Shown one piece after another: positions 669-55,560 of a stretch of DNA of 64,000 nt (positions are counted from its first letter, which is position 1; each line of letters begins with the position of its first letter). The DNA lies in NCBI GenBank assembly GCA_038045825.1, contig JBBSXJ010000004.1, positions 182,185 to 246,184 on the forward strand. Reading direction: 5' to 3'. The notes below the pieces were generated by a model. That model was not told the origin of the DNA. It did not search any database and saw only the letters and a list, made by a program, of their open reading frames with translations. The position numbers were made by a program, and so were the translations under genes. The DNA is from Nanobdellota archaeon. GTDB taxonomy: Archaea; Nanobdellota; Nanobdellia; Pacearchaeales; GW2011-AR1.

Positions 669-845
669 TGATGTCGATAGTCTCTCACACAAACCACGCC
701 CTTTAGGGTGTGTTCAAGACTTCGATCACTGCAACAGTATCGTCTGTTGCAGGTACTACAACTTCTTTGAAGTTGAAGTCATCCAAAAATCGAGCACCAA
801 TCAAACCACACACTTTAGTATGTGGTGGTGTATCGATTTTTTGAT
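669..845. repeat. dispersed structured non-coding element, copy 1 (candidate ncRNA or IS200/IS605-derived miniature element)
   Basis: 669-694 is identical to 52204-52229 and 714-803 is identical to 52245-52334; both copies end in atcgattttttgat and contain several hairpins. Confidence 0.9.
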
Positions 846-926
846 ATTTCTTGATGTGCTTTATATACTTTTTCGTTCGTTTAATTAGAAAGATATAAAT
901 ACTACTTATTCTGTATTGGCTGTAAC

Positions 927-1430
927 ATGGTTTCAAGAAAGTCCCTAGCTGCTTTTGGTTTGGCTGGGTTGTTATCCGGCTCTACTGCTGGTTATGCTGA
1001 TTCTTTGGCTTGTGATCAACCTTCTTATCAAACTCAGGAGTCTGATTTGTTTAAGGGGAGTAAGGTGATGCTTCTTTATCCTACTCTTGATGGACCTAGA
1101 CTTCCTTCAGATACTAGGTTGTATGAATGGCCGAGACCCGTTGATTCTGTTAATCTTGACTTTATTTCTGGAGTTCAAAAAGAATTGTATGGTCGTGAAG
1201 CTTTTGTTCTGCCTGGCGGAGCCTTTGTCGGATCTGGATCTATAGATTCTGCTCTTTCTCAGACTGCTAAACTTACTCTTGGGTCCCCTAAAACAGGGAT
1301 TGTTCCAGATTATATTGTTATAGTTGGGGGAGATAGAGAATCTAGTTCTTACTCTAGTATGGATAATAATGTTTATTTTGCATCACGTGATGGTCATAGG
1401 TATAATTTTGAAAGAGCTGAGGTCAAATAA
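927..1430 (+). CDS. hypothetical secreted protein
   Basis: ORF with N-terminal signal peptide. Confidence 0.65.
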   Translation: MVSRKSLAAFGLAGLLSGSTAGYADSLACDQPSYQTQESDLFKGSKVMLLYPTLDGPRLPSDTRLYEWPRPVDSVNLDFISGVQKELYGREAFVLPGGAFVGSGSIDSALSQTAKLTLGSPKTGIVPDYIVIVGGDRESSSYSSMDNNVYFASRDGHRYNFERAEVK

Positions 1431-1432
1431 CT

Positions 1433-1762
1433 ATGGAGACCTTTAAGTTTTTGCTTTTTGGTTTCTTTTCTGTTTTTCTTGTTGCTTCTTTAGTTGTTGC
1501 TCAGCCTGCTAGTGAGATTGTGAGGGATGAGACTTTTGTGCCTGTTTCTTCAGCATTTGTTGGTTGTCGTGATAATGGCTGTTTTGTTGCTAGTATGACT
1601 AGTATGCTTGCTTCTCTTAATGATACTCAGATTGGAACGAATACGACAGCTATTCTTAGTGAGTTGAATGTTACATTAGTTAGGTATAATGGAGGTAATT
1701 ATCCTTTTCCGACTTATGTCGTTGTTGAAGCAGCAGTAAATTTTTTAATTAATTTAATTTAA
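1433..1762 (+). CDS. secreted protein resembling the N-terminal (Cys) half of a C39/papain-like peptidase
   Basis: Signal peptide; NGCFVASMTSML resembles the GCxxASxxMxL nucleophile helix. Confidence 0.55.
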   Translation: METFKFLLFGFFSVFLVASLVVAQPASEIVRDETFVPVSSAFVGCRDNGCFVASMTSMLASLNDTQIGTNTTAILSELNVTLVRYNGGNYPFPTYVVVEAAVNFLINLI

Positions 1763-1763
1763 A

Positions 1764-2363
1764 ATGGAAATGAAATATATTCTCTTGTTTACTTTGCTTT
1801 TTTTAGTTGTATTTTCAAGTGAGGCTTCTGCTCAGGTTAAACCTAAGATTATAATTGAGCATATAACTTCTTGGGCTCAAGCTGCTTCTACACCTAAATC
1901 TGGTTCTGGATTTGAAATAGTTAGTACTGTTAGAGTTCCTGTTGTTGAAGATGTTTTAGATGCTATGAAGAAGAAAAAGAAGGTCACTCTTATTGTAGAC
2001 ATGGGCCCTAGGATATCTCATGCTGTTAGGGTTGTTGCTGTAAATTTGACTTCTTATAACGGAACTAATCAAGATAATCAGACTATTCTTTATTGGAATG
2101 CTGAAATTTTTGATCCTACAACTAATGCAATTTATAACTTAACTCTTGCTCATATTCTTGAGAGCAATGCCTCATTTTTACAGTGGGGTGCTCAGTGGTT
2201 ACCATTTTTAGAAGTTGTTACATTGTACAAAGTACCTACTATTCCTCCTTCTCCTGCTAGAACTAAATCAATATGGCTTGTTTCTATTCCTCTTTTAATT
2301 GAGAATTATAAAAAGCCTCTTGCTCGATTTGATTTTTTAAGCCATAGAAGCCTTTTTAAATAG
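1764..2363 (+). CDS. secreted protein resembling the C-terminal (His/Asp) half of a C39/papain-like peptidase
   Basis: Has its own signal peptide (ASA|Q); VTLIV...SHAVRVVAV...EIFDP pattern. Confidence 0.55.
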   Translation: MEMKYILLFTLLFLVVFSSEASAQVKPKIIIEHITSWAQAASTPKSGSGFEIVSTVRVPVVEDVLDAMKKKKKVTLIVDMGPRISHAVRVVAVNLTSYNGTNQDNQTILYWNAEIFDPTTNAIYNLTLAHILESNASFLQWGAQWLPFLEVVTLYKVPTIPPSPARTKSIWLVSIPLLIENYKKPLARFDFLSHRSLFK

Positions 2364-52203: not shown

Positions 52204-52351
52204 TGATGTCGATAGTCTCTCACACAAACTATATACCCTCTAGGTCAAGACTTCGATCACTGCAACAGTATCGTCTGTTGCAGGTACTACAACTTCTTTG
52301 AAGTTGAAGTCATCCAAAAATCGAGCACCAATCACGCATCGATTTTTTGAT
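52204..52351. repeat. dispersed structured non-coding element, copy 2
   Basis: Shares 26-bp and 90-bp identical blocks with 669-845; the two flanking hairpins are degenerate or absent. Confidence 0.9.
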
Positions 52352-52578
52352 TTTAATATACTTTAAATTTAATGTTGCTCTAAATCTTTTGTCTTTAGAT
52401 TAGAGTTGATATATTTTCAGCTACTTTTTAATACTAGTTGAAATCTCTCTTTAGATTGGAGTTAGTATCTATTTTGTGGAGATTATCAACTGTACTCCCA
52501 AAACTCTAGCAAAATCATCAGAGTTTTGTGATAATTAATGCTCTTTGGTTTGAGTCAAAAAATTATATTGTCTTTGAT

Positions 52579-55386: not shown

Positions 55387-55560
55387 GCCCTTGTAGTCTA
55401 GTGGTCAAGGACACGGCCCTCTCGAACTGGTTTACCAGCATGCAAGGTGATGTCGCTGAGACTATATCTGTGCTCGCTCTCGAGTAGCATGGTGTTGAAG
55501 CTGTCGCGCAAGCGATAGTGGAGAACGGCCGAAACCCGGGTTCAAATCCCGGCAGGGGCA
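55387..55560 (+). tRNA. tRNA-Glu(CUC) with a 101-nt intron at 37/38 (55425-55525)
   Basis: Acceptor gcccttg/caggggc, anticodon stem cggcc/ggccg, canonical bulge-helix-bulge (CUCU:GGAG helix, bulges CGA and AAC). Confidence 0.92.

Follow-up and report, generated by a model that had tools for sequence, protein, structure and literature searches.

A likely PATE-like family of gene-less IS200/IS605-type elements in DPANN archaea, traced from two copies in a Nanobdellota genome

Introduction

The PATEs of Haloquadratum walsbyi, as described in the relevant sections of PMC3119063, derive from IS605-type transposons and show strain-specific insertions even where intact IS200-type transposases are lacking. 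For IS608, the relevant sections of PMC5934647 and PMC3201880 describe how a guide pairs with the cleavage site, the transposase being no direct reader of that site. The sequences given there are CL TTAC with GL AAAG and CR TCAA with GR GAAT; C-3 pairs with G-35 and T-4 with A-34, A-2 stays unpaired, CL is located outside the IS, 19 nt upstream of the hairpin foot, and CR is located within the IS. ISDra2, according to the corresponding sections of PMC2806898 and PMC5934647, inserts 3' of TTGAT, mostly before a G.

Here, we analyze a 64,000-nt stretch of DNA from a Nanobdellota archaeon (GCA_038045825.1, contig JBBSXJ010000004.1, positions 182,185-246,184), hereafter the window, in which two related intergenic stretches are likely to be members of a PATE-like family of non-autonomous, gene-less IS200/IS605-type elements of DPANN archaea. 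The family is new, while its kind (PATE, IS200/IS605-derived) is already known. In the features for which PATEs are described in PMC3119063, the likeness extends to the lack of terminal inverted repeats and of target duplication, to palindromes near both termini akin to those of the IS200/IS605 type, to a conserved short terminal oligonucleotide, and to small repeats inserted into palindromes, comparable with the core and apical modules reported below. The element differs from PATEs in occurring in DPANN archaea and not in Halobacteria, in its unrelated sequence, in having TnpA-type hairpins that top longer family-wide stems (H1 and H2), and in that many copies are without TnpA-type hairpins and no parent IS with the same ends was found. 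With IS608 and ISDra2, as far as the sources cited above describe them, it shares insertion 3' of a tetra- or pentanucleotide lying outside the element, the lack of duplication and subterminal hairpins, and its commonest targets, T(G/T)AT followed by G, resemble the TTGAT|G of ISDra2; unlike both, it carries no tnpA or tnpB. In the texts covered by our literature search, parts of PMC13343696 among them, we found no description of such elements in Nanoarchaeota, Pacearchaeota or Woesearchaeota.

Results

Two copies in the window

The + strand of the window carries two copies, at 669-847 and 52204-52351 (from reading the window and from alignment), and these are the only ones within its 64 kb. 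An earlier note on this DNA had described two structured copies sharing a 26-nt block, a 90-nt core and a common end, which alignment confirmed. Positions 669-694 are identical to 52204-52229, the 90-nt core at 714-803 of copy 1 is identical in copy 2, and the two have the same 3' end, a T-run plus GAT (at 845 and 52351). The hairpins named in the note exist, and the differences between the copies are indeed confined to two spots, which are the TTTA-loop hairpins of copy 1 (694-713 and 806-825), each of 8 bp and each preceded by CAAA(C). The strand, which the note had called ambiguous, can be assigned, since the active GTC...TGAT strand of both copies is on +. The features are as follows.

669..672, + strand: TGAT, predicted left cleavage/target tetranucleotide of copy 1, in the flank and outside the mobile unit
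673..845, + strand: mobile unit of copy 1, 173 nt, consisting of long H1, core1 and long H2
673..728, + strand: left end of copy 1, hairpin H1, from the covarying stem and the fold
690..693, + strand: CAAA, putative left guide tetranucleotide, directly 5' of the foot of the apical hairpin
694..713, + strand: apical hairpin A, putative left TnpA-binding hairpin, 8-bp stem and TTTA loop
729..781, + strand: core1, a 53-nt two-hairpin insert between the ends, which ends in TCA and is preceded by TCA
785..842, + strand: right end of copy 1, hairpin H2, in which an A-run and a T-run close a sequence-variable stem
802..805, + strand: CAAA, putative right guide tetranucleotide, for which the pairing rule predicts TGAT, as found at 842-845
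806..825, + strand: apical hairpin B, putative right TnpA-binding hairpin, 8 bp with one mismatch and TTTA loop
842..845, + strand: TGAT, predicted right cleavage tetranucleotide, the last four bases of the unit
52204..52207, + strand: TGAT, left flank tetranucleotide of copy 2
52208..52351, + strand: copy 2, 144 nt, with the backbone of copy 1 and core1, from alignment and fold

The lower stem of H1, a hairpin found family-wide, is formed in copy 1 by 671-684 with 717-728, and the foot of apical hairpin A lies 21 nt from the predicted cleavage point. The flanking TGAT at 669-672 pairs with the CAAA at 690-693 by the guide rule set out below. Copy 2 has both apical hairpins lost or degenerate, its backbone and core1 being identical to those of copy 1, and its short H2 variant is common to copies on two other contigs of the genome (C7 and C5). 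When folded as single-stranded DNA, copy 1 reached -38.6 kcal/mol (z -7.4) and copy 2 reached -26.8 kcal/mol (z -5.7), with none of 200 shuffles as good in either case. The minimum-energy fold of both copies consists of four hairpins in a row and is preferred to the three-way junction proposed in the note, whose closing pair gacttc/gaagtc can form only in competition with the family-wide H1 stem.

The family in the source genome

The genome from which the window comes amounts to 836,590 bp on 16 contigs and is 89.6% complete. The earlier note had taken the element to be present twice, which is correct for the window but not for the genome. BLAST gave 19 matches in this genome, and shorter words and a profile search gave further ones. 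We then used a covariance model built from an alignment of 11 short forms, with two stems as structure. It produced 45 matches at E<=1, and 30 rows at E<=0.01 that represent 28 distinct elements, two of which were matched twice. Copy 1 scores only E 0.011 and falls outside these 28, because core1 splits it, and there are several degenerate copies besides. The copies are spread over 12 of the 16 contigs in different contexts, many of them directly after stop codons or between convergent genes and some in divergent promoter regions.

All share one plan, which from 5' to 3' comprises ATGTC, H1, the linker GA(G/T)CATCC, an A-run, H2 with its variable stem, and a T-run plus GAT. Copies may carry further modules in addition: a TTTA-loop hairpin at the top of H1, a comparable one at the top of H2, and, between H1 and H2, either the 53-nt core1 or an unrelated core2. 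H1 and H2 each occur in a short and a long form, which are combined in various ways with the two core inserts. The units measure 53-187 nt. Core1 is present in only three copies of the genome, both window copies among them, and contigs of other sequencing runs skip it in other copies, with three letters shared at the joint. Hairpins of the apical type were found in this genome solely inside the element. The units are too short for a transposase and have no conserved ORF; a minus-strand ORF in the core and a small ORF starting at the conserved ATG were considered as coding candidates and rejected, as other copies have stops or frame shifts in them.

The two stems covary. Among the 11 short forms, 95.0% of the cells are paired, and both partners vary in 9 of the 20 pairs. 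On four of five measures, no shuffle out of 500 did as well as the real alignment; on the remaining one, further pair types, 2 of 500 did. In an alignment of 59 copies (56 distinct), which leans towards the structure because it was fitted to the model, 97.4% of the cells are paired and both partners vary in 16 of the 20 pairs, while controls in which the pairing was slid gave 40-49%; here too no shuffle out of 500 did as well on four measures, and 18 of 500 did on the fifth. G-U pairs account for about 6 of the 1,074 cells of this alignment, and such scarcity is as expected for DNA hairpins.

No known RNA family matches the element. In the window, only four tRNA matches reached the gathering score of Rfam 15, and the six weak matches at four element loci (E 0.3-8.6) were all far below it. 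Box C/D, H/ACA and bulge-helix-bulge motifs, compared by eye, do not fit the conserved positions, and a simple terminator scan around copy 1 (400-1100) yielded no site.

Empty sites and boundaries

Eight public runs from two studies contain the window stretch, all as DNA contigs. We aligned the contigs of four of these runs to a 19.9-kb stretch around copy 1. Three of the four runs (X3, X4 and X5) skip copy 1, by exactly 173 nt each. In X3, a 14,459-nt contig bridges the copy, with 7 and 11 other letters in the 4,478 and 1,870 nt on its two sides; the same skip is seen in a 1,002-nt contig of X4, with 162 nt on the shorter side, and in a contig of X5, with 27 nt on the shorter side. A further joint (411 to 526) near another element, C4:165440, was left out, one side being 27 nt and the intervening letters not known. 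Near-identical strains thus carry an empty site at copy 1. Four letters are shared at the joint, so that the unit is 673-845 or one of four equivalent registers, and the empty allele retains a single TGAT because target and right end are the same tetranucleotide. A TGAT like that at 842-845 is conserved at the right end of nearly all copies, in agreement with the position of the 173-nt joint. In the summed contig depth, the bin of the element stands 3 to about 60 times above neighbouring bins, in keeping with a repeat abundant in these communities.

Empty sites are found between species as well. Copy 1 is absent from the orthologous intergenic regions of two congeners (G013 and G010). The short-form element C4:74271 is absent in at least six congeners and C4:79002 in at least seven, where the flanking genes abut. 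Conversely, short-form elements of three congeners (G007, G001 and G011) are missing at the orthologous sites of our genome, and base-level alignment of these three cases gives an insert of exactly GTC...T(G/T)AT, placed 3' of a pre-existing ..AT, with no target duplication. The ends GTC... and ...T-run+GAT recur in the 59 aligned copies, whose flanks are otherwise unrelated, and AT is present at both junctions. On inspection of the sequences, neither terminus is the reverse complement of the other, and there are no terminal inverted repeats.

The empty allele of copy 1 is flanked by a 4-nt repeat. This allele could also stem from replication slippage between two TGATs, across the hairpins; the cross-species cases show true insertion without such a repeat. 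These findings show that the element is polymorphic in present-day populations and still coming and going.

Guide and target pairing

For each long-form copy, we tabulated the four bases before the apical hairpin of H1 against the four bases before GTC. As can be seen from the pairs that match, the two change together: AAAA occurs with TTAT (19 rows), CAAA with TGAT (13), GAAA with TCAT (4), ATAA with ATAT (3) and CAAG with TGAT (1). Both Watson-Crick pairs, g1:c2 and g2:c1, are thus present in 40 of the 49 long-form rows. Shuffling gave a mean of 15.8 (sd 3.0), and none of 10,000 shuffles came to 40, a test that overstates independence because copies within one subfamily are kin. Leaving out one duplicate and one row that is not an element, 39 of 47 rows obey the rule, which is broken in eight rows among element copies. 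For each of four guide types, the commonest flank is the one that the rule predicts, and the CAAA guide by itself has a TGAT flank in 13 of its 14 rows. The same rule does not fit core1, nor H1 and H2 themselves.

The left cleavage point predicted in this way lies 17-21 nt from the hairpin foot, with its site outside the unit, and the right site 16-20 nt from the hairpin foot, inside the unit, as its last four bases. At the right end there is little variation, the guide being CAAA in almost all copies and the unit ending in TGAT, which is what the rule predicts. As IS608 is described in the sections cited above, the likeness includes a guide located 5' of the foot, the pairs g1:c2 and g2:c1 with A at c3, and a left site at about 19 nt (17-21 nt in the element) from the foot. 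The right site of IS608 differs in being 10 nt from its hairpin, compared with the 16-20 nt of the element.

Two observations bear on whether kinship could account for the pattern. One and the same backbone was found with four different guides, each accompanied by the matching flank. Furthermore, elements of identical sequence in one congener (G003) have the flanks TCAT (three times), TGAT and TTAT, and therefore the tetranucleotide is a chosen target and not an inherited part of the element. Both the variety of guides and the G003 flanks speak against mere shared descent. As a correlation between sequences, the rule suggests that the cleavage site of the long forms may be recognized by guide pairing, as in IS608.

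Although the short forms have no apical hairpins, they too were inserted in a lineage-specific manner, and their boundaries are the same. Their flanks share only ..AT, and we saw no position in them that follows the flank as a guide would; one identical short-form H1 stands behind six different flanks (TAAT, TCAT, TGAT, TTAT, GTAT and ATAT). In some short forms, the loop still has the bases found just before the hairpin of the long forms.

Relatives and transposase genes

Of 61 related genomes, the covariance model matched 27. These include every one of the 16 others in the genus, with 1-58 matches each, many matches in relatives lying at contig ends of fragmented assemblies. In other genera of the family, 5 of 20 genomes were matched, and in one further family all four; another family gave one weak match and five families none. 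A pattern scan of public genomes located the linker in at least some metagenome-assembled genomes labelled Nanoarchaeota, Candidatus Pacearchaeota and Candidatus Woesearchaeota; it also returned chance bacterial matches, and only archaeal loci confirmed by the model were used.

We looked for an enzyme that could move the family. A six-frame search of the source genome with the Y1 transposase profile (PF01797) gave no match, and neither did tblastn with two TnpA proteins of congeners, which is no proof of absence because the genome is incomplete (89.6%). Among relatives, 18 of the 61 genomes have Y1 genes, including 6 of the 16 congeners. Such genes are present in 10 of 27 element-bearing genomes versus 8 of 34 element-free ones, and no Y1 gene was found in two high-copy genomes (G008 and G016); this co-occurrence says little either way because the genomes are kin and incomplete. 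TnpB-type genes (PF07282, PF01385) had no match in the source genome, PF07282 gave only two sub-threshold matches in five congeners, IS110-type genes (PF01548) were found neither in the source genome nor in four congeners, and the assembly of the source genome contains no IS-sized repeats.

The Y1 loci of relatives are ordinary IS200-like units with ends of their own, present in several copies or as fragments. At their right ends, AAA precedes a G+C-rich hairpin (8 bp, TTTA loop), which is followed by a conserved tail, and a hairpin of this class was seen at the tnpA elements of five genomes (G004, G015, G002, G035 and G021). The apical hairpins of the long forms belong to the same class and differ from the G004 hairpin by compensatory changes, which bears out the resemblance to IS200/IS605 termini that the earlier note had remarked on for the TTTA-loop hairpins. 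The pairing rule holds at these IS200-like ends too, with GAAA and TCAT, 6 nt past the hairpin, at five loci and a GACG guide with TCAC at one. In 14 tnpA loci examined, we found no convincing ends of the element, the best match, of 16.7 bits, lying within a tnpA gene and those elsewhere having 10-13 bits, and no full-length parent IS with the ends of the element.

Discussion

We propose that a Y1 (HUH) transposase supplied in trans would bind both apical hairpins on the single-stranded top strand. The four-base guide 5' of each hairpin foot would pair with the cleavage tetranucleotide, the left one being located in the flank, 17-21 nt upstream, and the right one being the last four bases of the unit. 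The unit would be excised precisely and pasted 3' of a matching tetranucleotide, with no target duplication. This scheme starts from boundaries, presence or absence, lack of duplication, guide pairing and a shared hairpin class that the sequences show; from these we infer the enzyme, the place where it is encoded and the single-stranded intermediate. The earlier note had offered a TnpA-mobilised, PATE-like element as one of its readings, and this is the one that the data support, with further homologues, covarying stems, empty sites in strains and in congeners, lack of duplication, guide covariation and the hairpin class of relatives; of the genes one would expect for it, none was found in the source genome, and Y1 genes do occur in relatives.

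Other explanations have to account for the same evidence. The note had also considered a new structured noncoding RNA, and the family could act at the RNA level, as a cis-acting module such as a 3'-end or terminator cassette or as a gene for a small RNA with a T-run at its end, and its spread would then be secondary. The strong folds and covarying stems would suit this, as would the resemblance of H2 to a two-way terminator (A-run, stem and T-run) and the many copies right behind stop codons or between convergent genes. Nevertheless, it is quite improbable, since no Rfam family matches, the element is missing, with exact boundaries, from near-identical strains and from orthologous sites, copy number ranges from 1 to 58 among congeners, some copies lie within divergent promoter regions, G-U pairs are nearly absent, and the terminator scan has no site at copy 1. 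The guide covaries with a tetranucleotide outside the unit, which an RNA fold would not need. A different enzyme is improbable too: a serine or tyrosine recombinase acting at the shared AT, a nuclease, or hairpin-stimulated template switching could have moved the units, with the apical hairpins added later. Short forms do insert with the same boundaries and need only a ..AT flank, AT is found at both junctions, and the source genome is without a detected tnpA. Against this, the searches for other transposases, which covered the IS110 (PF01548) and TnpB (PF07282, PF01385) types, found none, the assembly has no IS-sized repeat, and the guide rule of the long forms is specific to the IS200/IS605 mechanism.

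REP/REPIN sequences are short hairpin repeats between genes, on which a Y1 HUH protein (RAYT) acts. That the family should be of this sort, made of palindromes that a domesticated single-copy Y1 protein of the RAYT type maintains and mobilises for a host function, is highly improbable. These repeats too are hairpin-based, intergenic and multi-copy, and Y1 proteins occur in the clade, but the REPIN-like reading mentioned in the note is unsupported: no Y1 gene was found in the source genome at its 89.6% completeness, none of those at the 14 loci in relatives is flanked by the element, Y1 genes there sit in ordinary IS200-like units, multi-copy or fragmentary, and copy number varies widely among congeners. 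The element further differs from REPINs in being without a flanking single-copy RAYT and in having two distinct ends with guide and cleavage sites instead of an inverted pair. It resembles a MITE, as MITEs are characterized in the relevant part of PMC3119063, in being small, intergenic, multi-copy, non-autonomous and mobilised in trans; a MITE is excluded by the absence of inverted repeats at the ends and of a target-site duplication. A misassembled duplication, raised in the note as a possible refutation, has already been refuted. Repeats often break assemblies, and nothing more speaks for it, while copies occur in varied contexts on 12 of the 16 contigs, the family is present in 26 other genomes, and independently assembled contigs of four runs carry it.

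The preferred reading, an IS200/IS605-type element moved in trans, has to accommodate the short forms, which either lost their hairpins after insertion or were mobilised another way. The loop bases that some of them retain would fit hairpin loss after insertion. We consider it unlikely, yet worth stating, that the short forms (H1 plus H2 with conserved ends) are the original element, moved by an undescribed route, and that the long forms are hybrids. In that case, an HUH or other nuclease might read a cleavage site within the basal part of the H1 stem, at which the AT of the flank would pair with the AT of the conserved CAT, or the enzyme might be encoded by a virus, a plasmid or the host of the episymbiont. 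The long forms would then have gained IS200-type hairpins plus guides, and with these target specificity and bursts of copying.

The missing transposase and the natural covariation of guide and target are the most interesting sides of the family. The former repeats the puzzle of Haloquadratum, recent insertions with no intact transposase in sight; the latter makes the family a natural experiment on programmable IS200/IS605 targeting, in which four guide variants face complementary targets. About 30 active-looking parasitic elements in 0.84 Mb indicate that streamlined DPANN genomes are not free of mobile DNA, and their number changes from 1 to 58 among the species of one genus, where these repeats also break assemblies. 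For annotation, we advise masking the elements as repeats; they should not be reported as small RNAs or small ORFs.

The orientation of the copies in the source genome shows no clear bias, agreeing with the sign of the GC skew in 21 of 34 cases and with gene-strand bias in 19 of 34. On contig C4, 9 of 10 copies are in one orientation.

A variable gene cassette around copy 1

Copy 1 of the element lies in a block (window 669-2325) that also holds three small ORFs:

927-1430, small ORF, hydrophobic N-terminus
1433-1762, small ORF, hydrophobic N-terminus
1764-2363, small ORF, hydrophobic N-terminus

When we compared congeners, three (G001, G002, and G014) were found to have orthologs of the flanking genes without the entire block between them, while the block is found, at lower identity, in four others (G007, G010, G011, and G013). 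Since it is missing in the former and present in the latter, the block is a variable gene cassette, which adjoins the L15e gene.

Loop and core variants of the element

Some copies in the same genome, all outside the window, have an apical hairpin loop that reads TAAA rather than TTTA on the same strand, with unaltered stems. These copies, listed below, look as if either the loop or the entire palindrome had been inverted:

C4:99148, TAAA-loop copy
C13:38112, TAAA-loop copy
C5:56318, TAAA-loop copy

There is also a second type of insert, core2, which occupies the position of the 53-nt core1 between hairpins H1 and H2. This insert, which is also present in the congener G016, comprises two hairpins with stems that covary among copies. 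Its locations are:

C5:98122-98266, core2, own genome
C12:2632-2816, core2, own genome
C13:19450-19576, core2, own genome
L036:1596-1661, core2

Hairpin-within-hairpin growth, as in the studied element, is seen in two IS200-like elements of congeners (L082:490-560 and L081, in G004 and G002), where the right-end hairpin is expanded by two nested small hairpins. Immediately upstream of an IS200-like tnpA in G004, two neighboring ORFs (L079:214-1267) have reverse transcriptase–like motifs (YVDD box), and the pair could represent a split reverse transcriptase of the group II intron or retron type.

Neighboring features

Just 3' of copy 2 lies a member of another small repeat family (window 52425-52516), which contains an inverted repeat and TTTA/TAAA-loop hairpins. 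It is 86% alike over 95 nt to C11:2013-2105, with three further short matches on C4, C5, and C1. At two of these five places, a copy of the studied element is no more than ~80 nt away.

Finally, the 174 nt at window 55387-55560, where ARAGORN called no gene, match the Rfam tRNA model end to end (49.3 bits) and probably represent a tRNA gene interrupted by a long intron (~100 nt).
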